Origin: a virus
Taxonomy: Monodnaviria > Loebvirae > Hofneiviricota > Faserviricetes > Tubulavirales > Inoviridae
DNA: 17,017 bases
Strand: one strand, 5' to 3'
Virus record (IMG/VR): IMGVR_UViG_2721755645_000001
Within the stretch, counting starts at the first letter, position 1; the number at the start of each line of letters is the position of its first letter. The notes beneath the pieces are model-generated. The model was not told where the DNA came from and ran no database searches. It saw only the letters and a list, made by a program, of their open reading frames with translations. Both the position numbers and the translations under genes were made by a program. Shown piece after piece: positions 1 through 17,017 of this stretch.

Positions 1-2
1 TT

Positions 3-34
3 GGTGCGCATAATGTCAACGCGTTATGTTGAAA
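3..34. other. dif-like XerC/XerD recombination site (att) at the left prophage boundary
   Basis: GGTGCGCATAA (3..13) is identical to the XerC-binding arm of E. coli dif; a 10-bp central region TGTCAACGCG follows, then TTATGTTGAAA, which resembles the XerD arm TTATGTTAAAT with 2 mismatches. Confidence 0.6.
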
Positions 35-68
35 AGGCCGCTGCGAAAATCGAATCCCGCAGCGGCCT
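35..68 (-). terminator. Rho-independent terminator candidate downstream of the 309-aa cargo gene
   Basis: GC-rich inverted repeat GGCCGCTGCG (36..45) / CGCAGCGGCC (58..67) with a 12-nt loop; on the minus strand it is followed by TTTTC; the gene's stop is at 101. Confidence 0.5.
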
Positions 69-100
69 CTTTAGCATAACGTCATTGTGCGAACCAATAG

Positions 101-1030
101 CTACTTTTTCGTATAACTCTCTTCGCATTTAGCCAAAAACAGCAGATTAGTAGCGGTTAAATGAAGGGTATAACTCGCTAAATACTCAGGAACTTTTGTT
201 ATTTCTGCCCCTTGTCCATGTCCACCTTCTTTATTTCGAATGGTTGGAATACCACTCTCAAGTAGAATTCTTATTGAAGAAAATTGATTCTGGAGGTATT
301 CAGGTACTAAATTATTTGCCAAACAACTGTTAATTAGTTTTTTAGCTGTGTCAGTATCATTAAATTGCCAAGAATGTTTTTTATGTATGGCTTTCATTAG
401 ACTTTCAAAAGATTTGAGGCAATCATTTAAACATTCTTTATATCGCTGATGTCTATAATGCTCATGGGCGGATAAAAACTCATCGTTTGCTCCGTTATAA
501 CTCTTGTTCTTACCAAGAATCTGAAGCGTAGGCTTTACAACATCAGAATGAATGAATTGTGAGTCAACTTTAACCAACTCTCCTGACTCAAATTGATATC
601 CAAGACCTGCTTCTTTAAACCTGATATTAAGTTCTTCAATAGCATCATCAGGACTTTGCTTTACTAACCCTCTGAATTTCCACTCATTTGATCTTATATA
701 CCCGTCTATCAGTTTGAAACATATCTCAATGATATCCAAGCATTTTTCATGATCTCTCTCAGCTAGGAAATAGTCAAAAATTGCCCCGAAATTCGATTCA
801 GGATACTGTTTGAGAGAGAATACACCATATTCCTTACACAGCGTTTTATGAACGAGTCTGTAAAGCTTACTTGCTTCCGTTTCATAGTCACTATCTTCAC
901 CGATAGTATCTCTTACAATATGAACAACCTGAACACGAAATGCATTTGGTATATTCGTGTATTGGTAAACATCAGCTACTTCACCTCTTAATTTTTTTTG
1001 TCTTTTTGAAAATAATTCGAATATAGCCAA
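101..1030 (-). CDS. Hypothetical 309-aa cargo protein; possible HEPN-type C-terminal domain (R265-x5-H271); function unknown
   Basis: Long ORF with GAGGA Shine-Dalgarno 7 nt upstream of the ATG; very AT-rich (about 30-32% GC in hand-sampled stretches) compared with neighbours; C-terminal motif IRNKEGGHG; terminator hairpin downstream. Confidence 0.75.
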   Translation of the reverse strand: MAIFELFSKRQKKLRGEVADVYQYTNIPNAFRVQVVHIVRDTIGEDSDYETEASKLYRLVHKTLCKEYGVFSLKQYPESNFGAIFDYFLAERDHEKCLDIIEICFKLIDGYIRSNEWKFRGLVKQSPDDAIEELNIRFKEAGLGYQFESGELVKVDSQFIHSDVVKPTLQILGKNKSYNGANDEFLSAHEHYRHQRYKECLNDCLKSFESLMKAIHKKHSWQFNDTDTAKKLINSCLANNLVPEYLQNQFSSIRILLESGIPTIRNKEGGHGQGAEITKVPEYLASYTLHLTATNLLFLAKCEESYTKK

Positions 1031-1116
1031 TTTATAATCCTCAAAGATATGCCATTAATATGTCTGAGTTGATGAAAATCACACCGCTTTTACAGTCGTT
1101 TTCCACGGTGGAGTTA

Positions 1117-1536
1117 TCAGTAATATGAGTTTCTTCTGTGCCACCAATAAAGAAGTCCGTATCCAATGATAAGAATTCCGAAAAACATCAACGACATTCC
1201 CCAGCCAGTTCCGTACCACGAAACCATATCATCGAAAACCAACCCACCCATTTCACGTACTCCGGCAGCTTCCTTAAGAATTGGTTTGAATACCGGAATC
1301 AGAAGGGCGATCGCCAGTGGAGCACCCCAGCGAACAAGACCTGTTTCCATTTTGATCCCGAAAAAGATCCCCGCTCCGACAGCAAGCAACCAGACTACCA
1401 GGCCAGGCGCAGTTTCCAGTGCTGTTTGCCATTCAACATCGAAAGTTTTCATTAGCCAGGCAACAACTGCCAGACAGAAAGCAAATACGCCGACGACAAC
1501 CAGTTCAACGCCGCTTGTTTCGTTATTTCTACTCAT
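1117..1536 (-). CDS. Small integral membrane protein, about 4 predicted TM helices, unknown function
   Basis: 139 aa with four hydrophobic stretches (LVVVGVFAFCLAVVAWLM, LVVWLLAVGAGIFFGI, PLAIALLIPVF, LMFFGILIIGYGLLYWW); about 52% GC in sampled stretches; AAGGA upstream of the ATG. Confidence 0.65.
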   Translation of the reverse strand: MSRNNETSGVELVVVGVFAFCLAVVAWLMKTFDVEWQTALETAPGLVVWLLAVGAGIFFGIKMETGLVRWGAPLAIALLIPVFKPILKEAAGVREMGGLVFDDMVSWYGTGWGMSLMFFGILIIGYGLLYWWHRRNSYY

Positions 1537-1578
1537 CCTTTTGATCCTTTTTCACTGTTCAAAATTCGCACAATAAAG

Positions 1579-1607
1579 AACGTGCAGTGTTGGTAATACT
1601 GCACGTT
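1579..1607 (-). terminator. Perfect 10-bp inverted repeat (AACGTGCAGT-N9-ACTGCACGTT); candidate terminator or attenuator after the repressor gene, or an operator
   Basis: Hairpin lies 29 nt downstream of the repressor stop (1636) on the minus strand and is followed on that strand by a T-rich tract (CTTTATTGTG). Confidence 0.4.
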
Positions 1608-1635
1608 TGTCTCATTCCTGAGACTGTTAATCCTT

Positions 1636-2082
1636 TTACTCTTCTCCAGACACCGCTTTTTTCATAAACATTTTAGTACTGTAAGTGTATGAACTTAAGG
1701 CAGAAACTTGCCTTGCGAGTGCCAGAATATCTTGTTTTTCCAGTGTCCTGATGTTCCACACGATGAAATTATGTGCGTTAGTGGTTTCTTCATCAGTATA
1801 TCCATCCGCAGAAGTGATTAGCTTCCGCTCGGTAGCTTCTTCTTTAACATCAAGAGCATAGCCATAAGCTAAGGTGTTTAAGTCTGCACCCGTAATTTTA
1901 GCTATCTGAATGATGTCACTGAATTTAGGTTCAGTTTTGCCGGACGCTATCCTGACCAGCGTACTCACGCTAATGCCAGTCTTCTCGGCCAGTTCTTCAT
2001 AAGTCGAGTGTTCCAGAATTACCTTTTTGATACGTTCTGCTCTCTGTTTGTCCGCCATAACTTCATGCTCATTGTTGCCCAT
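1636..2082 (-). CDS. XRE-family helix-turn-helix transcriptional regulator (phage repressor-like, analogous in position to RstR)
   Basis: 148 aa; N-terminal HTH-like segment YEELAEKTGISVSTLVRIASGKTEPKFSDIIQIAKITGADLNTL; divergently transcribed from the replication gene; GGAG 8 nt upstream of the ATG. Confidence 0.7.
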   Translation of the reverse strand: MGNNEHEVMADKQRAERIKKVILEHSTYEELAEKTGISVSTLVRIASGKTEPKFSDIIQIAKITGADLNTLAYGYALDVKEEATERKLITSADGYTDEETTNAHNFIVWNIRTLEKQDILALARQVSALSSYTYSTKMFMKKAVSGEE

Positions 2083-2253
2083 CTACTTGGCTCCATCTTA
2101 ACAGTGGTTTTTCAATAGTTAGATTTGATGCTCATTTCTGACAATTTAAACATTGCAAATGTATTGACTGTCAGATCTGAGCATATTACATTGTGACCAT
2201 TCAATCTGCTCACAAATGACTATTGACACATATTTTGATGGGTGTGACTACTT
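2083..2253. promoter_or_regulatory. Divergent promoter/operator region between the repressor and replication genes
   Basis: Rightward sigma70-like candidate: -35 TTGACT (2164..2169), 17-bp spacer, -10 TACATT (2187..2192). Overlapping palindromes TGACTGTCA (2165..2173) and TCAGATCTGA (2171..2180) and further TGAC repeats are candidate repressor sites. Confidence 0.45.
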
Positions 2254-3306
2254 ATGATCGACTGGTTTACCGGAATCCTGCCTTGCACACACCGACCGTT
2301 ACCGGCTGGTAGTGTCGTCAGCGTCGATGCTGACGGTGCAGTGGAGTGGGAAACAGTAAAACGGTTGACCGTTCGCGGTTCGCATGAGTCCACAATGAAA
2401 GTAAGGTCTGTTGGATCTGATGGTGAAGGTCGGGCAACACATCTCTACATTGACGGTAATCCATCAAAGTTTTTGCAAGGTCACTCTGTTATCGGTTCCG
2501 ACGATTTGCAAGGGTTGGTGTTAACAGCTTACGCCAGAATATTGGCATTACTGCATATTCCTCATGATCTACCATCCTATCGGCAGGTCATGAAAGGGCA
2601 ATTTAAGATCTCGCGCATCGATATCAATTACATGTATTCATTGTCAACATTAGAAAATGTCCGCGCATGGTTATATGCCGCAGAATTTAAAGCTAAAACT
2701 CGCCACGGTCGCGCCTGTAGTAAAGGTGGCACTGTTTACTTAGGGAAAAACTCCCGTCGTTGGAGCCTGAAATTTTATTCAAAATATGATGAGCATACAT
2801 CTGGCAAAAAAGGGCACCAGATGGCAGACGAATTCGTTAAAGCTGGTTTACTGGACTGGTCAAAAGATAAATTACGCATTGAATTAACATTAAGAACAAC
2901 TGAATTAATTGATTTGAATCTTACGCTTGGTAATAGCTGGAATATTGAGACGCCCAATAAATTATTCTCTGACTATGTAGGGAGAATAGAAATGAATCAA
3001 AATACTATATTAACTGATGAAAAAATAATTAATCTCCCAAGAAAAATACAGTCTACATATTTATTGTGGAAGCAGGGCGCGAACATGAAAGAGATGTTAC
3101 CGAAACCTACATTCTACCGACACCGTAAAGAATTACTTTCTTTCGGAATAGATATTAACTTTTATTGTGAGTCACCGGATTCTAATAACGTTGTTCCGTT
3201 GGTTCGTACTCTTGAAGCCAAACCAGCCAAAATTCCATCATGGGTTTATGAGAAAGGTTTAATTTTCGATTATAACCGTATTTCACATGCCAGTAACTGG
3301 CATTAA
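2254..3306 (+). CDS. Putative rolling-circle replication initiation protein (gene II / RstA-like)
   Basis: 350-aa ORF, first gene of the plus-strand module and divergent from the repressor, as in Ff and CTX-type phages; assignment by synteny and size only, no catalytic motif verified. Confidence 0.55.
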   Translation: MIDWFTGILPCTHRPLPAGSVVSVDADGAVEWETVKRLTVRGSHESTMKVRSVGSDGEGRATHLYIDGNPSKFLQGHSVIGSDDLQGLVLTAYARILALLHIPHDLPSYRQVMKGQFKISRIDINYMYSLSTLENVRAWLYAAEFKAKTRHGRACSKGGTVYLGKNSRRWSLKFYSKYDEHTSGKKGHQMADEFVKAGLLDWSKDKLRIELTLRTTELIDLNLTLGNSWNIETPNKLFSDYVGRIEMNQNTILTDEKIINLPRKIQSTYLLWKQGANMKEMLPKPTFYRHRKELLSFGIDINFYCESPDSNNVVPLVRTLEAKPAKIPSWVYEKGLIFDYNRISHASNWH

Positions 3307-3317
3307 AGGAGAGTGAT

Positions 3318-3635
3318 ATGTCTAATTATGGTCTTTTTGTAAAAGGTAAAATGCTTGGTGCTCGCCAGCGTAATAAGGTCAATGGTCAGGGATACTATAA
3401 TGAAATTGGTGTTGGCTTAGAGATTCCTGATGGTTTTGGCGGCACTAAGCAAGACCAGATTATTATTCGTGTATCTCAGGCTCTTGTTAATGCCGGTGTA
3501 ATGAATCAGGCAAATAATTTTATCGGTAAGTTAGTCCAGATACCTGTATATGTTCGCGTCTGGTCAATGGAGGGGAGGGAAGGAGTAACTTATAACATTT
3601 CATCAGATGGCGGCATTACTGAAATAAAAGGCTGA
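3318..3635 (+). CDS. Putative ssDNA-binding protein (gene V / RstB-like)
   Basis: 105-aa ORF directly after the replication gene; strong AAGGAGAG Shine-Dalgarno; position matches gV in Ff synteny. Confidence 0.45.
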   Translation: MSNYGLFVKGKMLGARQRNKVNGQGYYNEIGVGLEIPDGFGGTKQDQIIIRVSQALVNAGVMNQANNFIGKLVQIPVYVRVWSMEGREGVTYNISSDGGITEIKG

Positions 3636-3637
3636 TT

Positions 3638-3889
3638 ATGGATACATCAGGTTTCGATATTCAGTTTGATAATCATATTCCTGAAAATGGTTACCGTATT
3701 GAAGGTTATTTATGTAATGCGAACAATGCAAAAGAATGTCAGGCAATAATGGTACGTTCTGAACCATTTCATCAAATTGATTATTCTGCAATGGGAAATT
3801 ACTGGACATTAGGTTTTGGCTCTGTCCTGCTGCTCTGGCTTTTTTCTGTAGGTGTGGGACAGGTAATAAAGATGGTTCGTACTGCTTGA
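3638..3889 (+). CDS. Small protein with a C-terminal hydrophobic segment; possible minor coat or morphogenesis protein
   Basis: 83 aa, start 2 nt after the upstream stop; C-terminal segment WTLGFGSVLLLWLFSVGVGQVI; position corresponds to gVII/gIX in Ff order. Confidence 0.4.
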   Translation: MDTSGFDIQFDNHIPENGYRIEGYLCNANNAKECQAIMVRSEPFHQIDYSAMGNYWTLGFGSVLLLWLFSVGVGQVIKMVRTA

Positions 3890-3923
3890 ATGCGAACCTT
3901 TAAAATGTAATGGAGATAGAGTT

Positions 3924-4157
3924 ATGTTTAAAAAAATCGTTAGTTTTCTGGCTGTACCTGCATTAATGGCTGTTTCTGGCGCGACTTTCGCTGCAGAAGG
4001 AGCGGCATCAAGTGGTGTTGATTTATCGCCGCTGACGAACAGCATTGATTTCAGTACAGTTCTGGTTGCGATTATGGCCGTTGCTGCTTCACTGGTAACA
4101 CTTTATGCCGGTGTCGCTGGCGTTCGCTGGGTATTGCGTACCGTTAAATCCGCATAA
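3924..4157 (+). CDS. Major coat protein (gene VIII-like)
   Basis: 77 aa; signal peptide MFKKIVSFLAVPALMAVSGATFA with AXA-type cleavage, acidic mature N-terminus, hydrophobic core and basic C-terminus (RWVLRTVKSA); GGAGA Shine-Dalgarno; strong terminator follows. Confidence 0.75.
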   Translation: MFKKIVSFLAVPALMAVSGATFAAEGAASSGVDLSPLTNSIDFSTVLVAIMAVAASLVTLYAGVAGVRWVLRTVKSA

Positions 4158-4170
4158 ATTCATTATTCAT

Positions 4171-4195
4171 GGGCGATGCAATATCGCCCGTTTTA
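4171..4195 (+). terminator. Rho-independent terminator after the coat gene
   Basis: Stem GGGCGAT (4171..4177) / ATCGCCC (4183..4189) with a 5-nt loop, followed by GTTTTA; matches the position of the gVIII terminator in Ff phages. Confidence 0.7.
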
Positions 4196-4221
4196 CTTGA
4201 GGTTATTATGGAGATTGAATT

Positions 4222-5934
4222 ATGGAAATTGGGTTCCCTTTTATGGGGGATCGTCTCAGCTTATGTCGTTATTCTTGGGCTAAGAGGCTGACGGTTTATT
4301 CCTTTATTTTTTCCTTTCTCTGGGTTTCCTTTCCCCGATATTCATATTCATTTGTACCAGCAATTGCAGCAGTGGCTGCGCGGGCTGTTATTCCTAAAGT
4401 CGTTGGCCGGGTGCTTGTTCGTCGCTTTGCTGCCAATGATGCGATTTATACGGCATCACAGCTTACAGCAACCCGTGTTTTTGTTGGCCGCGCTGCGGCT
4501 AATGCTGCCGAATACTTGCCTGCTGCCTCATCATACAAAATGAGCGGTGTTGCAACGTGGGCGGGTATTGCTGCTGCTGTATCATCTTTTGTTCCGTCTT
4601 CTTTGAGTTCATCTGACGGCTCGGTAATGGTAATGACTAACGGTAAAAAGATTTCCGATAATTTATATGAAGTAACGTACAGTGGTCAAAGTGGTGAAAG
4701 TAAGACGATAACCGTTAATTTTGAACCACAGGAATTAAGTCCGGTAATCCTTCATGTTAGTCGTAATAATGTGGATGCGGGTTCTCCAGTTGTAGGTGTT
4801 GAAACAGGATATTCCACGCCAGATAATGCACTTTATTATTATCAGGATTCGAAAGAGCTAATTTATTACTATGGTGATAATCCAACTGAAATTGCCAGAA
4901 ATTATCTTAATGACTATAACTCGCGTACTTATACTGAAACACTAACGAATTTTGAACGCACTGTGACGAATAAAGTTGTCAACAGTAATGGAGATGTCTC
5001 CTTTACTGAACAGAATTATAAGTTTACTTATCCTTCCTCATTTTATGAAATTCCTGAGATTACACACTTGTATAGCAACCCGGCCGCATCTTCATTTCCC
5101 GCAGGTATTCCCATGTATGAAAATGTAGCAGGGCTTCCCATGTATTACAGCGTTGCTTATTTAACAGCAGGAAAGCAATATCAGTATCACAACACGCCTT
5201 GTAAAACGACTAATCAGTCAAATGGTGGATATTCGACGATTTGCGCCGTTCCTGAAAAAGAGGATTACACCACAAAAGATATTGATGAAAAGAGTGAGCT
5301 TACTATCTGGACCAATACCAAATATAAAGCCATGACGGAAGTACTGGAGGCCGGAAATATTGAGTCCATGATTGATTATCTGGAGTATCTTGATAGTGTT
5401 AGTGTATCGCCAGCACTTCTTGCCGACATGATTAACGAGCTGTGGTCTGAAGCTGCCGTTAATGCCGATTATAACGGCTTACCGTTTAAAGAGGTTTCAC
5501 CGGCTGAAGTAACTTCTGCGATGTCGGAACTTAGGCTATCTCCAACGTTATTAGATATGCTTTCACCTGTATCTGACAGTGCAGGGGCTGACGTCAATAT
5601 TGATATTACCATTAATAACAACTCAGGATCTGACACTGGAAATAATGGCAATATAGATTTGGGAGAAGATCCCGGTGTAAAAGAGCCTGAGCTTGAAGAA
5701 ACGCCAACGGCAAGAGATATTTTAACGCCAATTATTAACTTGTTGCCTTTTACAAACGAATTTAACATCGGCTCTCGTTCAGCATCCTGCCCCGTTGTTG
5801 AATTCAGCGTGTTTAATCACCAGTACAGAATTGACTCCCATTGTCCGTTAATTGAGCAGAACAGAAGCGCCGTAGAAACCATATTTCTGATTATATGGGG
5901 ATTTGTTGCGCTCCGTATTATTCTTAGTGCCTAA
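4222..5934 (+). CDS. Minor coat / adsorption protein (gene III-like)
   Basis: 570 aa; signal-like hydrophobic N-terminal segment, Gly/Ser/Asn-rich linker (NNNSGSDTGNNGN) and C-terminal membrane anchor (IFLIIWGFVALRIILSA); the true start may be the internal ATG at 4243. Confidence 0.65.
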   Translation: MEIGFPFMGDRLSLCRYSWAKRLTVYSFIFSFLWVSFPRYSYSFVPAIAAVAARAVIPKVVGRVLVRRFAANDAIYTASQLTATRVFVGRAAANAAEYLPAASSYKMSGVATWAGIAAAVSSFVPSSLSSSDGSVMVMTNGKKISDNLYEVTYSGQSGESKTITVNFEPQELSPVILHVSRNNVDAGSPVVGVETGYSTPDNALYYYQDSKELIYYYGDNPTEIARNYLNDYNSRTYTETLTNFERTVTNKVVNSNGDVSFTEQNYKFTYPSSFYEIPEITHLYSNPAASSFPAGIPMYENVAGLPMYYSVAYLTAGKQYQYHNTPCKTTNQSNGGYSTICAVPEKEDYTTKDIDEKSELTIWTNTKYKAMTEVLEAGNIESMIDYLEYLDSVSVSPALLADMINELWSEAAVNADYNGLPFKEVSPAEVTSAMSELRLSPTLLDMLSPVSDSAGADVNIDITINNNSGSDTGNNGNIDLGEDPGVKEPELEETPTARDILTPIINLLPFTNEFNIGSRSASCPVVEFSVFNHQYRIDSHCPLIEQNRSAVETIFLIIWGFVALRIILSA

Positions 5935-5946
5935 AGGAGTGCAACT

Positions 5947-6147
5947 ATGTTTGGGATTCTGATTAGTGCATTAAATACTTTGTTAGGTTTTGTATTCCGG
6001 TCATTGATTATTAAATTCGTCGTATTCTTTGCGCTGTATTTTGTAGTCCAGGGCTTCGTTGATATACGGGGAAAAAATAATGAAAAAGATTTTACTCGCA
6101 TTAACGCTACTATTTTCTTCATGTGCTTTCGCAGGGTCAGAGCTTGA
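5947..6147 (+). pseudogene. Truncated gene VI-like ORF; 3' end removed by the 1183-bp deletion in copy 1
   Basis: First 38 codons identical to the 95-aa ORF at 13681..13968, then the frame diverges after the deletion junction (6062|6063) and runs into the gIV region. Confidence 0.7.
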
Positions 6148-7324
6148 ATTAAATAAAGTCAAGCTACCGGAGGCTATTTCTCTTATTTACAGTGAGGTGC
6201 TTAAAGTCCCGTATATGCTAGATCCACAGCTTGTTAATGATGAACGAATGATTACATTCAGGTTAACATCTGATATTGATGAACGGGAATTTGTAACCCG
6301 TTATCTTGGCAATATGAACATTCGAATATGGACGAAAAAGGGTGTTGATTTTATCGCGCCCTATACGCCGAAAGAGCCGGTTAAGCCACGTTATACATGG
6401 ACTTATACGCCTCAGTACCGTTCTGTTGCCTACCTGTCTGATATTCTTGGCGGCTACGTTTCAGGCTCCTTCAATAACAGTGGAGCCGTGATTTCTGACG
6501 ATTCGCTAAAAGGTTCATCAGGGGCAAGCAACTACATCAATCGAACCGGTGATATTCTGGTTTATTATGGTACGAAAGAGGATATCGCCATCCTGAAAAC
6601 ACTGGTCACTTCGCTGGATACGATGAGTGATGAAGTGGTTGTTTCTGGTTATGTTTTTGAGGTTCAGACCTCGCAGTCTGACGGCTCCGGCATTCTTTTA
6701 GCGGCTAAAATTCTGTCTGATAAATTCAATATTTCAGTTGGTGCTGCCGGACTGGATAATTTTATCAATATTCGAACCGGCTCCATTGATGCCATTTTCA
6801 ATCTGCTGAAAACCGACAGTCGTTTTACTGTTGTCAGTGCGCCACGACTGCGGGTAAAAAATAATGCCTCAGCGTCTTTTTCAGTCGGCTCTGATGTGCC
6901 AGTACTGGGCAGTGTTACGGTGAATAACAATACGACAACGCAATCCGTTGAATATCGTTCCAGCGGTGTTTTGTTTAACGTGACGCCATCAATCAAAAGT
7001 CGGACAATGGATCTCAAGATTCAGCAGCAGCTTTCCAACTTTGTGACCACTGAAACCGGCGTCAATAACTCGCCAACCCTTATCAAGCGTGATGTAACAA
7101 CCGAAGTCAGCCTTGCAGATGGTGATATTATTTTACTTGGTGGCCTTGCTGAACAGAAAGACAGTAAGGCCAGTTCCGGCTGGAGCTTCTTCGGTTCCCG
7201 TACCAGTGAAAGCAACAAGACTGATATTATGGTGATGCTTCAGGTCAGAAAGGTTGACCGGAGCAGGGCGACGCCCCGCAGCGCCGCGAGGAGCGGTGAA
7301 CTGTTCCGGGACAACCTGAACTGA
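6080..7324 (+). CDS. Secretin (gene IV-like outer-membrane export channel), copy 1
   Basis: 414 aa from the ATG at 6080; signal peptide MKKILLALTLLFSSCAFA; C-terminal secretin-like motif DGDIILLGGL. The ORF-track start at 6059 is an in-frame ATG created by the deletion junction. Confidence 0.8.
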   Translation: MKKILLALTLLFSSCAFAGSELELNKVKLPEAISLIYSEVLKVPYMLDPQLVNDERMITFRLTSDIDEREFVTRYLGNMNIRIWTKKGVDFIAPYTPKEPVKPRYTWTYTPQYRSVAYLSDILGGYVSGSFNNSGAVISDDSLKGSSGASNYINRTGDILVYYGTKEDIAILKTLVTSLDTMSDEVVVSGYVFEVQTSQSDGSGILLAAKILSDKFNISVGAAGLDNFINIRTGSIDAIFNLLKTDSRFTVVSAPRLRVKNNASASFSVGSDVPVLGSVTVNNNTTTQSVEYRSSGVLFNVTPSIKSRTMDLKIQQQLSNFVTTETGVNNSPTLIKRDVTTEVSLADGDIILLGGLAEQKDSKASSGWSFFGSRTSESNKTDIMVMLQVRKVDRSRATPRSAARSGELFRDNLN

Positions 7325-7736
7325 TTGTATGGATTTTTATTATGGCGTTAACTTTTATGGGGTATGAACAGTACGACATCTTTTTGTTGCTGTCCGGGGT
7401 TGGCCAAGCCGTACAGTTTCCATTTTCAGCGTTATGGCTGATTCGGCGCGGCAGCATTCATCGGGCCTTATCATGGAAAAATTCATGACACATCAGGAGC
7501 ATGGTGATTGGTGATGGCACTGAAGAAGTGGTGTTTGATTCTCGTGTATCAGGTACAGATTTACCAACTAACTGGATGAACAGGCCTGATTGGTGAGGTC
7601 AGGCCGTTCACTTACTGCTGACAGACATTTGATTCTGATTCGTTTGGAGAAACGGATGATTTTGAATCACTGTCGATAGTAGCCAGTTGACGGCCAGTGT
7701 CAACGATTCCCGCCAGATTCTGCCATCCTTACCATT

Positions 7737-7768
7737 GGTGCGCATAATGTCAACGCGTTATGTTGAAA
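7737..7768. other. dif-like XerC/XerD site at the junction between the tandem prophage copies
   Basis: Same 32-bp sequence as 3..34, lying exactly at the copy 1 / copy 2 boundary. Confidence 0.6.
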
Positions 7769-7802
7769 AGGCCGCTGCGAAAATCGAATCCCGCAGCGGC
7801 CT
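7769..7802 (-). terminator. Rho-independent terminator candidate (copy 2 equivalent)
   Basis: Same hairpin as 35..68. Confidence 0.5.
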
Positions 7803-7834
7803 CTTTAGCATAACGTCATTGTGCGAACCAATAG

Positions 7835-8764
7835 CTACTTTTTCGTATAACTCTCTTCGCATTTAGCCAAAAACAGCAGATTAGTAGCGGTTAAATGAAG
7901 GGTATAACTCGCTAAATACTCAGGAACTTTTGTTATTTCTGCCCCTTGTCCATGTCCACCTTCTTTATTTCGAATGGTTGGAATACCACTCTCAAGTAGA
8001 ATTCTTATTGAAGAAAATTGATTCTGGAGGTATTCAGGTACTAAATTATTTGCCAAACAACTGTTAATTAGTTTTTTAGCTGTGTCAGTATCATTAAATT
8101 GCCAAGAATGTTTTTTATGTATGGCTTTCATTAGACTTTCAAAAGATTTGAGGCAATCATTTAAACATTCTTTATATCGCTGATGTCTATAATGCTCATG
8201 GGCGGATAAAAACTCATCGTTTGCTCCGTTATAACTCTTGTTCTTACCAAGAATCTGAAGCGTAGGCTTTACAACATCAGAATGAATGAATTGTGAGTCA
8301 ACTTTAACCAACTCTCCTGACTCAAATTGATATCCAAGACCTGCTTCTTTAAACCTGATATTAAGTTCTTCAATAGCATCATCAGGACTTTGCTTTACTA
8401 ACCCTCTGAATTTCCACTCATTTGATCTTATATACCCGTCTATCAGTTTGAAACATATCTCAATGATATCCAAGCATTTTTCATGATCTCTCTCAGCTAG
8501 GAAATAGTCAAAAATTGCCCCGAAATTCGATTCAGGATACTGTTTGAGAGAGAATACACCATATTCCTTACACAGCGTTTTATGAACGAGTCTGTAAAGC
8601 TTACTTGCTTCCGTTTCATAGTCACTATCTTCACCGATAGTATCTCTTACAATATGAACAACCTGAACACGAAATGCATTTGGTATATTCGTGTATTGGT
8701 AAACATCAGCTACTTCACCTCTTAATTTTTTTTGTCTTTTTGAAAATAATTCGAATATAGCCAA
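7835..8764 (-). CDS. Hypothetical 309-aa cargo protein (copy 2), possible HEPN-type C-terminus
   Basis: Identical translation to 101..1030. Confidence 0.75.
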   Translation of the reverse strand: MAIFELFSKRQKKLRGEVADVYQYTNIPNAFRVQVVHIVRDTIGEDSDYETEASKLYRLVHKTLCKEYGVFSLKQYPESNFGAIFDYFLAERDHEKCLDIIEICFKLIDGYIRSNEWKFRGLVKQSPDDAIEELNIRFKEAGLGYQFESGELVKVDSQFIHSDVVKPTLQILGKNKSYNGANDEFLSAHEHYRHQRYKECLNDCLKSFESLMKAIHKKHSWQFNDTDTAKKLINSCLANNLVPEYLQNQFSSIRILLESGIPTIRNKEGGHGQGAEITKVPEYLASYTLHLTATNLLFLAKCEESYTKK

Positions 8765-8850
8765 TTTATAATCCTCAAAGATATGCCATTAATATGTCTG
8801 AGTTGATGAAAATCACACCGCTTTTACAGTCGTTTTCCACGGTGGAGTTA

Positions 8851-9270
8851 TCAGTAATATGAGTTTCTTCTGTGCCACCAATAAAGAAGTCCGTATCCAA
8901 TGATAAGAATTCCGAAAAACATCAACGACATTCCCCAGCCAGTTCCGTACCACGAAACCATATCATCGAAAACCAACCCACCCATTTCACGTACTCCGGC
9001 AGCTTCCTTAAGAATTGGTTTGAATACCGGAATCAGAAGGGCGATCGCCAGTGGAGCACCCCAGCGAACAAGACCTGTTTCCATTTTGATCCCGAAAAAG
9101 ATCCCCGCTCCGACAGCAAGCAACCAGACTACCAGGCCAGGCGCAGTTTCCAGTGCTGTTTGCCATTCAACATCGAAAGTTTTCATTAGCCAGGCAACAA
9201 CTGCCAGACAGAAAGCAAATACGCCGACGACAACCAGTTCAACGCCGCTTGTTTCGTTATTTCTACTCAT
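8851..9270 (-). CDS. Small integral membrane protein (copy 2)
   Basis: Identical translation to 1117..1536. Confidence 0.65.
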   Translation of the reverse strand: MSRNNETSGVELVVVGVFAFCLAVVAWLMKTFDVEWQTALETAPGLVVWLLAVGAGIFFGIKMETGLVRWGAPLAIALLIPVFKPILKEAAGVREMGGLVFDDMVSWYGTGWGMSLMFFGILIIGYGLLYWWHRRNSYY

Positions 9271-9312
9271 CCTTTTGATCCTTTTTCACTGTTCAAAATT
9301 CGCACAATAAAG

Positions 9313-9341
9313 AACGTGCAGTGTTGGTAATACTGCACGTT
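9313..9341 (-). terminator. Inverted repeat, candidate terminator or operator (copy 2)
   Basis: Same sequence as 1579..1607. Confidence 0.4.
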
Positions 9342-9369
9342 TGTCTCATTCCTGAGACTGTTAATCCTT

Positions 9370-9816
9370 TTACTCTTCTCCAGACACCGCTTTTTTCATA
9401 AACATTTTAGTACTGTAAGTGTATGAACTTAAGGCAGAAACTTGCCTTGCGAGTGCCAGAATATCTTGTTTTTCCAGTGTCCTGATGTTCCACACGATGA
9501 AATTATGTGCGTTAGTGGTTTCTTCATCAGTATATCCATCCGCAGAAGTGATTAGCTTCCGCTCGGTAGCTTCTTCTTTAACATCAAGAGCATAGCCATA
9601 AGCTAAGGTGTTTAAGTCTGCACCCGTAATTTTAGCTATCTGAATGATGTCACTGAATTTAGGTTCAGTTTTGCCGGACGCTATCCTGACCAGCGTACTC
9701 ACGCTAATGCCAGTCTTCTCGGCCAGTTCTTCATAAGTCGAGTGTTCCAGAATTACCTTTTTGATACGTTCTGCTCTCTGTTTGTCCGCCATAACTTCAT
9801 GCTCATTGTTGCCCAT
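9370..9816 (-). CDS. XRE-family HTH transcriptional regulator (copy 2)
   Basis: Identical translation to 1636..2082. Confidence 0.7.
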   Translation of the reverse strand: MGNNEHEVMADKQRAERIKKVILEHSTYEELAEKTGISVSTLVRIASGKTEPKFSDIIQIAKITGADLNTLAYGYALDVKEEATERKLITSADGYTDEETTNAHNFIVWNIRTLEKQDILALARQVSALSSYTYSTKMFMKKAVSGEE

Positions 9817-9987
9817 CTACTTGGCTCCATCTTAACAGTGGTTTTTCAATAGTTAGATTTGATGCTCATTTCTGACAATTTAAACATTGCAAATGTATTG
9901 ACTGTCAGATCTGAGCATATTACATTGTGACCATTCAATCTGCTCACAAATGACTATTGACACATATTTTGATGGGTGTGACTACTT
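9817..9987. promoter_or_regulatory. Divergent promoter/operator region (copy 2)
   Basis: Same sequence as 2083..2253. Confidence 0.45.
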
Positions 9988-11040
9988 ATGATCGACTGGT
10001 TTACCGGAATCCTGCCTTGCACACACCGACCGTTACCGGCTGGTAGTGTCGTCAGCGTCGATGCTGACGGTGCAGTGGAGTGGGAAACAGTAAAACGGTT
10101 GACCGTTCGCGGTTCGCATGAGTCCACAATGAAAGTAAGGTCTGTTGGATCTGATGGTGAAGGTCGGGCAACACATCTCTACATTGACGGTAATCCATCA
10201 AAGTTTTTGCAAGGTCACTCTGTTATCGGTTCCGACGATTTGCAAGGGTTGGTGTTAACAGCTTACGCCAGAATATTGGCATTACTGCATATTCCTCATG
10301 ATCTACCATCCTATCGGCAGGTCATGAAAGGGCAATTTAAGATCTCGCGCATCGATATCAATTACATGTATTCATTGTCAACATTAGAAAATGTCCGCGC
10401 ATGGTTATATGCCGCAGAATTTAAAGCTAAAACTCGCCACGGTCGCGCCTGTAGTAAAGGTGGCACTGTTTACTTAGGGAAAAACTCCCGTCGTTGGAGC
10501 CTGAAATTTTATTCAAAATATGATGAGCATACATCTGGCAAAAAAGGGCACCAGATGGCAGACGAATTCGTTAAAGCTGGTTTACTGGACTGGTCAAAAG
10601 ATAAATTACGCATTGAATTAACATTAAGAACAACTGAATTAATTGATTTGAATCTTACGCTTGGTAATAGCTGGAATATTGAGACGCCCAATAAATTATT
10701 CTCTGACTATGTAGGGAGAATAGAAATGAATCAAAATACTATATTAACTGATGAAAAAATAATTAATCTCCCAAGAAAAATACAGTCTACATATTTATTG
10801 TGGAAGCAGGGCGCGAACATGAAAGAGATGTTACCGAAACCTACATTCTACCGACACCGTAAAGAATTACTTTCTTTCGGAATAGATATTAACTTTTATT
10901 GTGAGTCACCGGATTCTAATAACGTTGTTCCGTTGGTTCGTACTCTTGAAGCCAAACCAGCCAAAATTCCATCATGGGTTTATGAGAAAGGTTTAATTTT
11001 CGATTATAACCGTATTTCACATGCCAGTAACTGGCATTAA
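9988..11040 (+). CDS. Putative replication initiation protein (copy 2)
   Basis: Identical translation to 2254..3306. Confidence 0.55.
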   Translation: MIDWFTGILPCTHRPLPAGSVVSVDADGAVEWETVKRLTVRGSHESTMKVRSVGSDGEGRATHLYIDGNPSKFLQGHSVIGSDDLQGLVLTAYARILALLHIPHDLPSYRQVMKGQFKISRIDINYMYSLSTLENVRAWLYAAEFKAKTRHGRACSKGGTVYLGKNSRRWSLKFYSKYDEHTSGKKGHQMADEFVKAGLLDWSKDKLRIELTLRTTELIDLNLTLGNSWNIETPNKLFSDYVGRIEMNQNTILTDEKIINLPRKIQSTYLLWKQGANMKEMLPKPTFYRHRKELLSFGIDINFYCESPDSNNVVPLVRTLEAKPAKIPSWVYEKGLIFDYNRISHASNWH

Positions 11041-11051
11041 AGGAGAGTGAT

Positions 11052-11369
11052 ATGTCTAATTATGGTCTTTTTGTAAAAGGTAAAATGCTTGGTGCTCGCC
11101 AGCGTAATAAGGTCAATGGTCAGGGATACTATAATGAAATTGGTGTTGGCTTAGAGATTCCTGATGGTTTTGGCGGCACTAAGCAAGACCAGATTATTAT
11201 TCGTGTATCTCAGGCTCTTGTTAATGCCGGTGTAATGAATCAGGCAAATAATTTTATCGGTAAGTTAGTCCAGATACCTGTATATGTTCGCGTCTGGTCA
11301 ATGGAGGGGAGGGAAGGAGTAACTTATAACATTTCATCAGATGGCGGCATTACTGAAATAAAAGGCTGA
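11052..11369 (+). CDS. Putative ssDNA-binding protein (copy 2)
   Basis: Identical translation to 3318..3635. Confidence 0.45.
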   Translation: MSNYGLFVKGKMLGARQRNKVNGQGYYNEIGVGLEIPDGFGGTKQDQIIIRVSQALVNAGVMNQANNFIGKLVQIPVYVRVWSMEGREGVTYNISSDGGITEIKG

Positions 11370-11371
11370 TT

Positions 11372-11623
11372 ATGGATACATCAGGTTTCGATATTCAGTT
11401 TGATAATCATATTCCTGAAAATGGTTACCGTATTGAAGGTTATTTATGTAATGCGAACAATGCAAAAGAATGTCAGGCAATAATGGTACGTTCTGAACCA
11501 TTTCATCAAATTGATTATTCTGCAATGGGAAATTACTGGACATTAGGTTTTGGCTCTGTCCTGCTGCTCTGGCTTTTTTCTGTAGGTGTGGGACAGGTAA
11601 TAAAGATGGTTCGTACTGCTTGA
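11372..11623 (+). CDS. Small hydrophobic protein, possible minor coat protein (copy 2)
   Basis: Identical translation to 3638..3889. Confidence 0.4.
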   Translation: MDTSGFDIQFDNHIPENGYRIEGYLCNANNAKECQAIMVRSEPFHQIDYSAMGNYWTLGFGSVLLLWLFSVGVGQVIKMVRTA

Positions 11624-11657
11624 ATGCGAACCTTTAAAATGTAATGGAGATAGAGTT

Positions 11658-11891
11658 ATGTTTAAAAAAATCGTTAGTTTTCTGGCTGTACCTGCATTAA
11701 TGGCTGTTTCTGGCGCGACTTTCGCTGCAGAAGGAGCGGCATCAAGTGGTGTTGATTTATCGCCGCTGACGAACAGCATTGATTTCAGTACAGTTCTGGT
11801 TGCGATTATGGCCGTTGCTGCTTCACTGGTAACACTTTATGCCGGTGTCGCTGGCGTTCGCTGGGTATTGCGTACCGTTAAATCCGCATAA
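11658..11891 (+). CDS. Major coat protein (copy 2)
   Basis: Identical translation to 3924..4157. Confidence 0.75.
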   Translation: MFKKIVSFLAVPALMAVSGATFAAEGAASSGVDLSPLTNSIDFSTVLVAIMAVAASLVTLYAGVAGVRWVLRTVKSA

Positions 11892-11904
11892 ATTCATTAT
11901 TCAT

Positions 11905-11929
11905 GGGCGATGCAATATCGCCCGTTTTA
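11905..11929 (+). terminator. Rho-independent terminator after the coat gene (copy 2)
   Basis: Same sequence as 4171..4195. Confidence 0.7.
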
Positions 11930-11955
11930 CTTGAGGTTATTATGGAGATTGAATT

Positions 11956-13668
11956 ATGGAAATTGGGTTCCCTTTTATGGGGGATCGTCTCAGCTTATGT
12001 CGTTATTCTTGGGCTAAGAGGCTGACGGTTTATTCCTTTATTTTTTCCTTTCTCTGGGTTTCCTTTCCCCGATATTCATATTCATTTGTACCAGCAATTG
12101 CAGCAGTGGCTGCGCGGGCTGTTATTCCTAAAGTCGTTGGCCGGGTGCTTGTTCGTCGCTTTGCTGCCAATGATGCGATTTATACGGCATCACAGCTTAC
12201 AGCAACCCGTGTTTTTGTTGGCCGCGCTGCGGCTAATGCTGCCGAATACTTGCCTGCTGCCTCATCATACAAAATGAGCGGTGTTGCAACGTGGGCGGGT
12301 ATTGCTGCTGCTGTATCATCTTTTGTTCCGTCTTCTTTGAGTTCATCTGACGGCTCGGTAATGGTAATGACTAACGGTAAAAAGATTTCCGATAATTTAT
12401 ATGAAGTAACGTACAGTGGTCAAAGTGGTGAAAGTAAGACGATAACCGTTAATTTTGAACCACAGGAATTAAGTCCGGTAATCCTTCATGTTAGTCGTAA
12501 TAATGTGGATGCGGGTTCTCCAGTTGTAGGTGTTGAAACAGGATATTCCACGCCAGATAATGCACTTTATTATTATCAGGATTCGAAAGAGCTAATTTAT
12601 TACTATGGTGATAATCCAACTGAAATTGCCAGAAATTATCTTAATGACTATAACTCGCGTACTTATACTGAAACACTAACGAATTTTGAACGCACTGTGA
12701 CGAATAAAGTTGTCAACAGTAATGGAGATGTCTCCTTTACTGAACAGAATTATAAGTTTACTTATCCTTCCTCATTTTATGAAATTCCTGAGATTACACA
12801 CTTGTATAGCAACCCGGCCGCATCTTCATTTCCCGCAGGTATTCCCATGTATGAAAATGTAGCAGGGCTTCCCATGTATTACAGCGTTGCTTATTTAACA
12901 GCAGGAAAGCAATATCAGTATCACAACACGCCTTGTAAAACGACTAATCAGTCAAATGGTGGATATTCGACGATTTGCGCCGTTCCTGAAAAAGAGGATT
13001 ACACCACAAAAGATATTGATGAAAAGAGTGAGCTTACTATCTGGACCAATACCAAATATAAAGCCATGACGGAAGTACTGGAGGCCGGAAATATTGAGTC
13101 CATGATTGATTATCTGGAGTATCTTGATAGTGTTAGTGTATCGCCAGCACTTCTTGCCGACATGATTAACGAGCTGTGGTCTGAAGCTGCCGTTAATGCC
13201 GATTATAACGGCTTACCGTTTAAAGAGGTTTCACCGGCTGAAGTAACTTCTGCGATGTCGGAACTTAGGCTATCTCCAACGTTATTAGATATGCTTTCAC
13301 CTGTATCTGACAGTGCAGGGGCTGACGTCAATATTGATATTACCATTAATAACAACTCAGGATCTGACACTGGAAATAATGGCAATATAGATTTGGGAGA
13401 AGATCCCGGTGTAAAAGAGCCTGAGCTTGAAGAAACGCCAACGGCAAGAGATATTTTAACGCCAATTATTAACTTGTTGCCTTTTACAAACGAATTTAAC
13501 ATCGGCTCTCGTTCAGCATCCTGCCCCGTTGTTGAATTCAGCGTGTTTAATCACCAGTACAGAATTGACTCCCATTGTCCGTTAATTGAGCAGAACAGAA
13601 GCGCCGTAGAAACCATATTTCTGATTATATGGGGATTTGTTGCGCTCCGTATTATTCTTAGTGCCTAA
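11956..13668 (+). CDS. Minor coat / adsorption protein (copy 2)
   Basis: Identical translation to 4222..5934. Confidence 0.65.
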   Translation: MEIGFPFMGDRLSLCRYSWAKRLTVYSFIFSFLWVSFPRYSYSFVPAIAAVAARAVIPKVVGRVLVRRFAANDAIYTASQLTATRVFVGRAAANAAEYLPAASSYKMSGVATWAGIAAAVSSFVPSSLSSSDGSVMVMTNGKKISDNLYEVTYSGQSGESKTITVNFEPQELSPVILHVSRNNVDAGSPVVGVETGYSTPDNALYYYQDSKELIYYYGDNPTEIARNYLNDYNSRTYTETLTNFERTVTNKVVNSNGDVSFTEQNYKFTYPSSFYEIPEITHLYSNPAASSFPAGIPMYENVAGLPMYYSVAYLTAGKQYQYHNTPCKTTNQSNGGYSTICAVPEKEDYTTKDIDEKSELTIWTNTKYKAMTEVLEAGNIESMIDYLEYLDSVSVSPALLADMINELWSEAAVNADYNGLPFKEVSPAEVTSAMSELRLSPTLLDMLSPVSDSAGADVNIDITINNNSGSDTGNNGNIDLGEDPGVKEPELEETPTARDILTPIINLLPFTNEFNIGSRSASCPVVEFSVFNHQYRIDSHCPLIEQNRSAVETIFLIIWGFVALRIILSA

Positions 13669-13680
13669 AGGAGTGCAACT

Positions 13681-13968
13681 ATGTTTGGGATTCTGATTAG
13701 TGCATTAAATACTTTGTTAGGTTTTGTATTCCGGTCATTGATTATTAAATTCGTCGTATTCTTTGCGCTGTATTTTGTAGTCCAGGGCTTCGTTGAAATC
13801 CTTGTTGAGTTACTGCCAGATTCAAGCAATCTCTCATCGCTGTTTGCCAATTTATCAGACGGATTCTGGTACTTCATTAACCTGAGTAAATTACCACAGG
13901 GGATTAGTATGATTATCTCCGCAATGGCTACTCGTTTTATTATTCGACGTATTCCTGTTATAGGGTGA
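13681..13968 (+). CDS. Minor coat protein (gene VI-like)
   Basis: 95-aa hydrophobic protein with AAGGAG Shine-Dalgarno, lying between the gIII-like and gI-like genes as in Ff phages. Confidence 0.6.
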   Translation: MFGILISALNTLLGFVFRSLIIKFVVFFALYFVVQGFVEILVELLPDSSNLSSLFANLSDGFWYFINLSKLPQGISMIISAMATRFIIRRIPVIG

Positions 13969-13971
13969 GTT

Positions 13972-14997
13972 ATGGCTATTTCTGCATATATTGGCATACC
14001 CGGCTCAGGAAAAAGTTATGAAGCCGTTTGCAATGTCATTATTCCGGCATTTACCAGCGGCCGGAGAGTTGTGACGAACATTTATGGTTTACAAAAAGAT
14101 AAAATCACCGAACGTTATCCTGATGCAACGGGAGAAATTATTGTTGTGGATAATGATGATGTGCTTAAAGCAGATTTCTTTCCTTTTAAAGGTGGGGAAG
14201 GGAGCTTTTGCCAGTTTGGTGATTTAATTGTTATTGATGAAGCATGGCGAATCTTCGGTAGCGATAAGGATATGACGGCTGAGAAGAAATCATTTATTGC
14301 TGAACATCGTCATTTTACGCACCCTGAAACGGGTATTAGCTGTGATTTGGTTATTGTAAATCAGTCACTTTCTAATATTGCTCGCTTTCTGAAAGACAAA
14401 ATAGAAACAACTTACCGGATGCGCAAGCTGAAAGCGTTGGGCCTGAATAATCATTACTGCATTGACGTATATTCAGGCCACAAAATCTATAAAAGCAACC
14501 TCGTCACCAGTTATCGCAATAAATATAACCCTGATATTTTTGAACTTTACAAAAGTTATGAAGGAAATAACGGTAATGAAAAGCAGACAGATAAACGCCA
14601 GAGCATCTGGAATTCTGGCAAAGTCAGGTTCTTTCTTGTGCTTTTTCCATTGATGTTTATCGGGTCAGGCTGGCTGATTTACTCATTTTTCAGCACGTTT
14701 GGCCGAAGCGATCCCTCGCCAGATTTGACTACAACAGATGTACGTGATGCGGCCATGTTTCGTTCTTCCGCTGCTACTCCAGCACCAGATACTCCCTCAG
14801 AACCAGCTGAACCGCCACTTTCAACCGAGTGGCGTATATCAGGGAGAATGACCAGTGAAGGCAGGGCGTTTGTGATTCTTGTTAATGGTGCCGGTGTTTT
14901 GCGTGCCGTTCCTGCATCCAGTTTTAATTACAAAGGGATGTTGATGAGCGGAATTATTGATGGTGAGCGTGTGACGCTTTATACGGGGAAAAAATAA
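13972..14997 (+). CDS. Assembly ATPase (gene I / Zot-like)
   Basis: 341 aa; Walker A GIPGSGKSY at the N-terminus, Walker B-like LIVIDEAW, C-terminal TM segment (FFLVLFPLMFIGSGWLIYSFF); stop overlaps the gIV start (TAATG). Present only in copy 2. Confidence 0.8.
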   Translation: MAISAYIGIPGSGKSYEAVCNVIIPAFTSGRRVVTNIYGLQKDKITERYPDATGEIIVVDNDDVLKADFFPFKGGEGSFCQFGDLIVIDEAWRIFGSDKDMTAEKKSFIAEHRHFTHPETGISCDLVIVNQSLSNIARFLKDKIETTYRMRKLKALGLNNHYCIDVYSGHKIYKSNLVTSYRNKYNPDIFELYKSYEGNNGNEKQTDKRQSIWNSGKVRFFLVLFPLMFIGSGWLIYSFFSTFGRSDPSPDLTTTDVRDAAMFRSSAATPAPDTPSEPAEPPLSTEWRISGRMTSEGRAFVILVNGAGVLRAVPASSFNYKGMLMSGIIDGERVTLYTGKK

Positions 14998-16241
14998 TGA
15001 AAAAGATTTTACTCGCATTAACGCTACTATTTTCTTCATGTGCTTTCGCAGGGTCAGAGCTTGAATTAAATAAAGTCAAGCTACCGGAGGCTATTTCTCT
15101 TATTTACAGTGAGGTGCTTAAAGTCCCGTATATGCTAGATCCACAGCTTGTTAATGATGAACGAATGATTACATTCAGGTTAACATCTGATATTGATGAA
15201 CGGGAATTTGTAACCCGTTATCTTGGCAATATGAACATTCGAATATGGACGAAAAAGGGTGTTGATTTTATCGCGCCCTATACGCCGAAAGAGCCGGTTA
15301 AGCCACGTTATACATGGACTTATACGCCTCAGTACCGTTCTGTTGCCTACCTGTCTGATATTCTTGGCGGCTACGTTTCAGGCTCCTTCAATAACAGTGG
15401 AGCCGTGATTTCTGACGATTCGCTAAAAGGTTCATCAGGGGCAAGCAACTACATCAATCGAACCGGTGATATTCTGGTTTATTATGGTACGAAAGAGGAT
15501 ATCGCCATCCTGAAAACACTGGTCACTTCGCTGGATACGATGAGTGATGAAGTGGTTGTTTCTGGTTATGTTTTTGAGGTTCAGACCTCGCAGTCTGACG
15601 GCTCCGGCATTCTTTTAGCGGCTAAAATTCTGTCTGATAAATTCAATATTTCAGTTGGTGCTGCCGGACTGGATAATTTTATCAATATTCGAACCGGCTC
15701 CATTGATGCCATTTTCAATCTGCTGAAAACCGACAGTCGTTTTACTGTTGTCAGTGCGCCACGACTGCGGGTAAAAAATAATGCCTCAGCGTCTTTTTCA
15801 GTCGGCTCTGATGTGCCAGTACTGGGCAGTGTTACGGTGAATAACAATACGACAACGCAATCCGTTGAATATCGTTCCAGCGGTGTTTTGTTTAACGTGA
15901 CGCCATCAATCAAAAGTCGGACAATGGATCTCAAGATTCAGCAGCAGCTTTCCAACTTTGTGACCACTGAAACCGGCGTCAATAACTCGCCAACCCTTAT
16001 CAAGCGTGATGTAACAACCGAAGTCAGCCTTGCAGATGGTGATATTATTTTACTTGGTGGCCTTGCTGAACAGAAAGACAGTAAGGCCAGTTCCGGCTGG
16101 AGCTTCTTCGGTTCCCGTACCAGTGAAAGCAACAAGACTGATATTATGGTGATGCTTCAGGTCAGAAAGGTTGACCGGAGCAGGGCGACGCCCCGCAGCG
16201 CCGCGAGGAGCGGTGAACTGTTCCGGGACAACCTGAACTGA
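14997..16241 (+). CDS. Secretin (gene IV-like), copy 2
   Basis: Same 414-aa protein; GGGGA Shine-Dalgarno; start overlaps the gene I stop. Confidence 0.85.
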   Translation: MKKILLALTLLFSSCAFAGSELELNKVKLPEAISLIYSEVLKVPYMLDPQLVNDERMITFRLTSDIDEREFVTRYLGNMNIRIWTKKGVDFIAPYTPKEPVKPRYTWTYTPQYRSVAYLSDILGGYVSGSFNNSGAVISDDSLKGSSGASNYINRTGDILVYYGTKEDIAILKTLVTSLDTMSDEVVVSGYVFEVQTSQSDGSGILLAAKILSDKFNISVGAAGLDNFINIRTGSIDAIFNLLKTDSRFTVVSAPRLRVKNNASASFSVGSDVPVLGSVTVNNNTTTQSVEYRSSGVLFNVTPSIKSRTMDLKIQQQLSNFVTTETGVNNSPTLIKRDVTTEVSLADGDIILLGGLAEQKDSKASSGWSFFGSRTSESNKTDIMVMLQVRKVDRSRATPRSAARSGELFRDNLN

Positions 16242-16329
16242 TTGTATGGATTTTTATTATGGCGTTAACTTTTATGGGGTATGAACAGTACGACATCTTC
16301 TAGGTATTCAGTTACTTAGAGGATTTATT

Positions 16330-16578
16330 ATGTCTGTAAAAAATAAGGCGCGTGACCGACTTCCCGGTGGCCGCCTTAAGTCTTATCGTCGTGTAGGTTC
16401 ACATTTTGCCAGTTGTGCCAGATGGTTTGATAAATCGCCGTCCTGGTATCGCAATATGATGATGACCAGGCCTGAGCGCCGTGAAGTCAGAAGGCTTCTC
16501 AATCAGGTAATGCGTGGTCATGATGCTGACGGCATTGCTTTTCCGGTCAGTCATCGTCCGTTTGTTTATTGGTGGTGA
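16330..16578 (+). CDS. Hypothetical small basic protein (82 aa, Arg-rich), copy 2 only
   Basis: ORF with GAGGA Shine-Dalgarno 6 nt upstream; lies inside a 373-bp segment (about 16300..16672) that is absent from copy 1; no recognisable motif. Confidence 0.5.
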   Translation: MSVKNKARDRLPGGRLKSYRRVGSHFASCARWFDKSPSWYRNMMMTRPERREVRRLLNQVMRGHDADGIAFPVSHRPFVYWW

Positions 16579-17017
16579 ATTTCGTACGCACGAAATTTCA
16601 CGCATAAACACCAGACAAAAAATCGTTAACTGTCTGTTTTGAAAGATAACGCCGGTCAGTGACAAAACTTGTTTTGTTGCTGTCCGGGGTTGGCCAAGCC
16701 GTACAGTTTCCATTTTCAGCGTTATGGCTGATTCGGCGCGGCAGCATTCATCGGGCCTTATCATGGAAAAATTCATGACACATCAGGAGCATGGTGATGG
16801 CACTGAAGAAGTGGTGTTTGATTCTCGTGTATCAGGTACAGATTTACCAACTAACTGGATGAACAGGCCTGATTGGTGAGGTCAGGCCGTTCACTTACTG
16901 CTGACAGACATTTGATTCTGATTCGTTTGGAGAAACGGATGATTTTGAATCACTGTCGATAGTAGCCAGTTGACGGCCAGTGTCAACGATTCCCGCCAGA
17001 TTCTGCCATCCTTACCA

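Follow-up and report, generated by a model that had tools for sequence, protein, structure and literature searches.

The 309-aa protein encoded on the minus strand at 101-1030 of the window (the whole 17,017-nt stretch of DNA that was analysed) almost certainly carries at its C-terminus a domain of HEPN fold with a canonical catalytic motif, and its gene sits at the dif-proximal end of a filamentous prophage, in a cargo slot that holds one exchangeable gene. We consider it likely that the protein is a single-polypeptide AbiJ-type defence protein with an active HEPN RNase. The HEPN assignment itself is already known, the family, its two domains and its catalytic motif having been published in 2013 (PMC3710099), and an HEPN RNase gene is ordinary for a mobile element; what is new, in modest degree, is that this one lies in a swappable slot on the prophage of an inovirus. 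The features of the gene on which the argument draws are as follows.

101-1030, minus strand: gene of the 309-aa protein (AbiJ_NTD4 plus HEPN, the latter DUF7014/Abi_C), with a TTG start, from the ORF list
1039-1042, minus strand: Shine-Dalgarno-like GAGG, 8 nt 5' of the TTG, read from the sequence
527-1018, minus strand: AbiJ-NTD4 domain (residues 5-168), a helical bundle with a beta-hairpin at residues 145-154
116-523, minus strand: C-terminal HEPN-fold domain (residues 170-305)
392-406, minus strand: E209-S-L-M-K213, the E-x3-[KR] of HEPN helix 2 and second active-site element, from conservation and PMC3710099
218-238, minus strand: R265-N-K-E-G-G-H271, the HEPN R-phi-x4-H (R-x5-H) catalytic motif, from sequence and conservation
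32-67, minus strand: GC-rich hairpin GGCCGCTGCG...CGCAGCGGCC, then UUUU, 34 nt 3' of the HEPN stop codon

The product of 101-1030 is identical to RefSeq WP_000963948.1. The TTG start is credible because GAGG lies 8 nt upstream, RefSeq gives the same 930-nt gene, and the alignments of homologues to the protein begin at residue 1. The original prediction had placed an R-x5-H motif near the C-terminus, and its coordinates and numbering are correct: R265 is encoded by nt 236-238 and H271 by nt 218-220, with 38 residues after H271. The motif region of the protein is PTIRNKEGGHGQG, and the same stretch, as also read from the minus strand of 101-1030, is SGIPTIRNKEGGHGQGAEITK.

It had been cautioned that so short a motif may occur by chance, which holds for the bare pattern but not for residues 265-271. 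From the composition of the protein (13 R, 11 H), R-x(4-6)-H is expected 1.3 times, and 76% of 20,000 shuffles of the sequence contained at least one such match, while R-[NDH]-x(3-5)-H, a stricter pattern, turned up in 17%. One other match occurs in the protein, R32-H37 in the N-terminal domain, where H37 is retained by just 53% of relatives. When 1.84 billion cluster representatives were searched exhaustively with HMMER, 2,720 relatives of the 309-aa protein were returned, and conservation was counted in the best 150 of these, all cluster representatives with 38-58% identity. R265 was kept in 98% of these best 150, N266 in 97%, H271 in 99% and G272 in 98%; five residues separate R265 from H271 in 147 of the 151 sequences. 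As judged from the alignment, it is conservation, and not the bare pattern, that separates the 265-271 motif from chance.

An AlphaFold2 model built from 136 diverse relatives was confident (pLDDT 91.5, pTM 0.73) and placed the motif in the expected fold. The modelled C-terminal domain is a four-helix up-down bundle in which an insert separates helix 2 from helix 3; it is made up of helix 1 (176-193), helix 2 (197-218), the insert (219-250), helix 3 (251-268, kinked at 260), a loop (269-281) and helix 4 (282-307); inserts at this point are common in HEPN domains (PMC3710099). The last turn of helix 3 contains R265, and H271 falls within the loop behind it, which is the canonical position of the motif. 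N266 directly follows R265, and the residue after the arginine in HEPN motifs is usually N, D or H (PMC3710099). HEPN helix 2 has a second conserved acidic residue in the form E-x3-[KR] (PMC3710099); the corresponding E209 is kept in 151/151 sequences and K213 in 144/151, both inside helix 2. The proposal that R-x5-H is an HEPN active-site motif was thus upheld by the fold, the canonical position, the 97-99% conservation of R, N and H, and the complete conservation of E209. Searching the sequences of the PDB with the protein alone or with a profile of 136 sequences gave no meaningful match, and likeness to HEPN among solved structures was seen only by fold comparison, in which the top matches (TT1696, sacsin and AF0298) are HEPN domains without an established RNase activity.

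Profile searches identified the protein as a member of a defined family. NCBIfam NF046078 (STM4504/CBY_0614) scored 456.1 bits (cutoff 150) over residues 23-300, covering profile positions 1-280 of 281, and RefSeq already names WP_000963948.1 as a member. This family, AbiJ-NTD4 joined to an AbiJ-family HEPN, was defined by Anantharaman et al. in 2013 on CBY_0614 of Clostridium butyricum (PMC3710099) and rests on computational prediction; the 309-aa protein shares both domains over their full length as well as the conserved R-phi-x-H and shows no structural difference from it. Pfam AbiJ_NTD4 (PF18863) matched residues 5-168 at 94.9 bits against a cutoff of 34 (8.6e-27, profile positions 1-150 of 152) and was matched by all 136 relatives. 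Together with NF046078 this fits the AbiJ-like layout, earlier named as an example, of an N-terminal domain followed by a C-terminal HEPN.

The Pfam check that had been proposed for the C-terminal region gave a divided answer: DUF7014 covered residues 170-305 at 1.1e-77, whereas Abi_C in PF14355.11, in a region assigned to DUF7014, scored 12.8 bits over residues 259-300 (cutoff 24, E 0.14) and Pfam HEPN was likewise sub-threshold (E 0.15). In PF14355.13, precomputed for a large protein collection, all 120 close homologues are labelled Abi_C plus AbiJ_NTD4, and the homologue P0020 matches Abi_C of that version at E ≤ 1e-5. Among the 136 relatives, 25 reach Pfam HEPN (best 1.6e-5), 12 reach Abi_C (E ≤ 0.01) and 4 reach Ymh, all three being HEPN-type families in the Anantharaman classification (PMC3710099). 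In PADLOC-DB 2.0.0, with an E-value limit of 10, the only model found was PDC-S32, an uncharacterised candidate, as a partial match (E 4.5e-10, residues 6-223), and the AbiJ model did not match the 309-aa protein; PADLOC is reported to match no Abi_C protein (PMC13590631). A survey of the literature on STM4504, PDC-S32 and AbiJ-NTD4/DUF7014 found no experimental work on this subfamily, whether on RNase activity or on phage defence.

The closest guide to function is SadR of Staphylococcus aureus, a 266-aa Abi_C HEPN protein that breaks down total as well as single-stranded RNA and defends against phage 80alpha, and of which the R225A, N226A and H232A mutants each lose both RNA degradation and phage defence (PMC13590631, 2026). 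Lower plasmid acquisition is described as well (PMC13590631), and the report lists a class combining Abi_C with AbiJ-NTD4 (n=3). By its published description, SadR resembles the 309-aa protein in being a single protein that ends in an Abi_C/HEPN domain and has an R-N-...-H motif. The two differ in that the SadR motif, RNEYGDAH, is R-x6-H as against R-x5-H, that the N-terminal domain of SadR belongs to a class other than NTD4, and that sadR is chromosomal, beside rlmH/SCCmec in a Gram-positive host. AbiJ (Abi-859) of Lactococcus lactis, a phage-defence protein whose escape mutants lie in phage ssDNA-annealing proteins, is a plasmid-borne single-gene abortive-infection protein with a predicted C-terminal HEPN and the prototype of the Abi_C/AbiJ HEPN family; compared by description, it differs from the 309-aa protein in its N-terminal region. 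HepS, from the Salmonella prophage Gifsy-1, acts as a lone HEPN protein; it recognises a tail-tip protein and cuts tRNA anticodon loops (PMC13043305). It is a single-domain tetramer (PDB 9oik) without NTD4, carried by a siphovirus prophage and standing outside the STM4504/CBY_0614 family, and is alike in fold and logic only. A tblastn search with the HEPN domain against plasmids and phages retrieved members of the same family and no other Abi_C classes.

By analogy with the characterised HEPN enzymes, residues 170-305 would form an HEPN RNase that cuts RNA independently of metal, probably as a dimer or higher oligomer. AbiJ-NTD4 (residues 5-168), presumed to be a sensor or regulatory domain, would keep the RNase inactive until a phage component or an infection signal is sensed; the site made of R265, N266, H271, E209 and K213 would then cleave RNA, and growth of the infected cell would stop.

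The end of the N-terminal domain (residues 131-170, about 521-640 on the minus strand) has the consensus ELNxRFxEHGxGYQF...VDSxxxHxExVKP and is as conserved as the HEPN active site. N135 and G144 are invariant and R137 and H161 are kept in at least 97% of relatives, the remainder of the domain being variable. This conservation suggests a site for binding or catalysis, in a domain for which no related structure has been solved. N135, R137 and H161 are more in keeping with a conserved site for a ligand or an interaction than with a sensor of phage proteins, which would evolve fast, and this counts against the sensing of a phage component.

The window consists of two tandem copies of a CUS-1-like filamentous prophage, 1-7734 and 7735-17017, and the following features place the gene within them.

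7835-8764, minus strand: second, identical copy of the HEPN gene, in the second prophage copy, with the motif at 7952-7972
3-13 and 7737-7747, plus strand: dif XerC-arm GGTGCGCATAA, exact, at the left edge of each prophage copy

The XerC-arms are followed by TGTCAACGCG and TTATGTTGAAA. A full dif site was not found within three mismatches, the junction being imperfect and dif-like, which fits the XerCD-mediated integration described for CUS-1 and YpfPhi (PMC4266046). In the complete genomes of NC101 and UTI89 the CUS-1-like prophage lies beside hipBA and adjoins dif-like sequences. Copy 1 equals copy 2 minus two deletions (13797-14979 and 16300-16671 in copy 2 coordinates), the first of which takes the greater part of the DUF2523/pVI-like gene and almost the whole of the Zot/pI-like gene; the deletions therefore probably make virion assembly by copy 1 alone impossible. 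The pIII/puvA-like gene (4222-5934 and 11956-13668, plus strand) is a 570-aa ORF here as against 520 aa (1563 nt) for NC101 in RefSeq, and its start codon is uncertain.

The HEPN gene is the last of three leftward genes, after an HTH repressor-like gene (1636-2082) and the gene of a 139-aa membrane protein (1117-1536). Its position 3' of these two genes on the leftward strand makes its expression in lysogens probable, and a promoter scan of 1-2400 gave nothing convincing for the leftward genes, the HEPN gene included. The hairpin and UUUU at 32-67 are likely the intrinsic terminator of this operon. The 85-nt stretch containing the hairpin folds as RNA at -40.3 kcal/mol, and a consensus terminator scan missed it because its T-run has only four T. 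The 139-aa protein (1117-1536, minus strand, and 8851-9270) has several hydrophobic segments resembling membrane spans and matches phrog_4174; it has no Pfam or PADLOC match, its gene is kept in UTI89, and a putative role in superinfection exclusion is possible.

UTI89 is homologous to nt 1-97 and 1092-2600 of the window, and has in place of 98-1091, the segment with the HEPN gene and its ribosome-binding site, an unrelated segment with a 369-aa ORF (locus L082, 2289-3490) that has no Pfam or PADLOC match. Identity to the window is 97% in the terminator and dif-like flank and 97.8% in the orf139/HTH/pII region. This single-gene replacement shows the dif-proximal position to be a one-gene exchangeable cargo slot. 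We do not claim the HEPN gene as 'orf1' of CUS-1; UTI89, of the same O18:K1:H7 clone, has another gene there. Our survey of the literature on inoviruses and HEPN did not find the family described on a filamentous prophage.

The exact HEPN gene was found in 18 of 5,426 complete E. coli genomes, always on the chromosome and in one to four copies per genome, while the HTH/pII backbone is common to about 96 E. coli genomes. Members of the family also occur on 288 E. coli plasmids, mostly conjugative, and in a Clostridium temperate phage. The P0020 homologue (74% identity; L083-L086, 6001-8396) follows proBA and adjoins a tyrosine-integrase gene in several Enterobacteriaceae, and in L083 and L086 the homologue and the integrase appear to be the entire island. 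The neighbourhoods of 80 species-level homologue loci, found with an alignment of closer relatives, were surveyed: the phage proteins of the window, orf139 and the HTH gene stood beside 0/80 homologues from other species, and when 676 neighbouring ORFs were clustered all against all, no cluster extended beyond five of the 80 loci, the clusters coming from closely related genomes. Such a distribution, on plasmids, an island and phages and with no fixed partner, is typical of mobile defence genes.

The same carriage on plasmids, an integrase island and prophages would also suit an active RNase that serves the mobile element itself, through addiction, post-segregational killing, the exclusion of competitors among plasmids and filamentous phages, or an effect on host RNA to the benefit of in-host fitness. 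The plasmid effect of SadR points the same way, as do CUS-1 and YpfPhi, which have modest in-host fitness effects and terminal ORFs with no assigned function. We nevertheless regard this reading as rather unlikely: a lone protein with no antitoxin partner is an ill fit to classical addiction, the fitness effect reported for CUS-1 stemmed from puvA and prophage types that have another terminal gene, and the closest characterised relatives are anti-phage.

It is improbable that the domain is an HEPN fold with no nuclease activity, binding a ligand, nucleotide or protein as do MtlR, sacsin and the nucleotidyltransferase-associated HEPNs. Non-catalytic HEPN families have lost all or part of Rx4-6H (PMC3710099), whereas R265, N266, H271 and the acidic residue of helix 2 are kept in at least 97% of relatives, and SadR needs the same three residues for its RNase activity (PMC13590631).

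A two-gene module, toxin-antitoxin or two-component defence, in which the protein would be the toxin and the 139-aa membrane protein or the HTH protein its partner, is suggested by the arrangement of the three minus-strand genes, which lie closely spaced and head-to-tail over 101-2082 with one terminator behind the last of them, and by the many HEPN toxins that have a cognate antitoxin (PMC3710099). The HEPN-MNT type II toxins (SO_3166, PDB 5yep and 7ae2) are small one-domain proteins neutralised by an adjacent MNT nucleotidyltransferase, whereas no MNT-type gene lies beside the HEPN gene, its neighbours being the 139-aa membrane protein and the HTH protein. Neither neighbour accompanies any of the 80 homologues, which have no other recurrent neighbour either, and UTI89 keeps the membrane-protein and HTH genes while swapping the HEPN gene alone. 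A toxin-antitoxin pair with orf139 was rejected on the co-occurrence in these 80 loci, and a two-gene module is very unlikely overall. A chance R-x5-H in a helical domain other than HEPN, to which the frequency of the pattern in shuffles, the weakly conserved R32-H37 and the blank PDB sequence searches might point, is contradicted by the conservation and the HEPN fold and was rejected as having next to no probability.

The reading we prefer, of a single-protein AbiJ-type defence, leads to a tentative view of the slot. With a conserved terminator plus dif-like site as one boundary and orf139/HTH as the other, it would hold, in a minority of E. coli, an AbiJ-NTD4/HEPN RNase that may protect both the lysogen and its non-lytic inovirus from lytic phages, with NTD4, through its invariant N135, R137, G144 and H161, perhaps sensing a conserved small ligand or nucleic acid and not a phage protein that varies; we put this forward as possible, though somewhat doubtful. 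The gene is compact and single, has clear catalytic residues and is found in the well-studied E. coli NC101 and NGF1, and the UTI89 prophage with its other slot gene provides a natural control. Filamentous prophages, mostly discussed for toxins and fitness, can carry predicted abortive-infection cargo, a point of relevance to the puzzling terminal ORFs of CUS-1 and YpfPhi.
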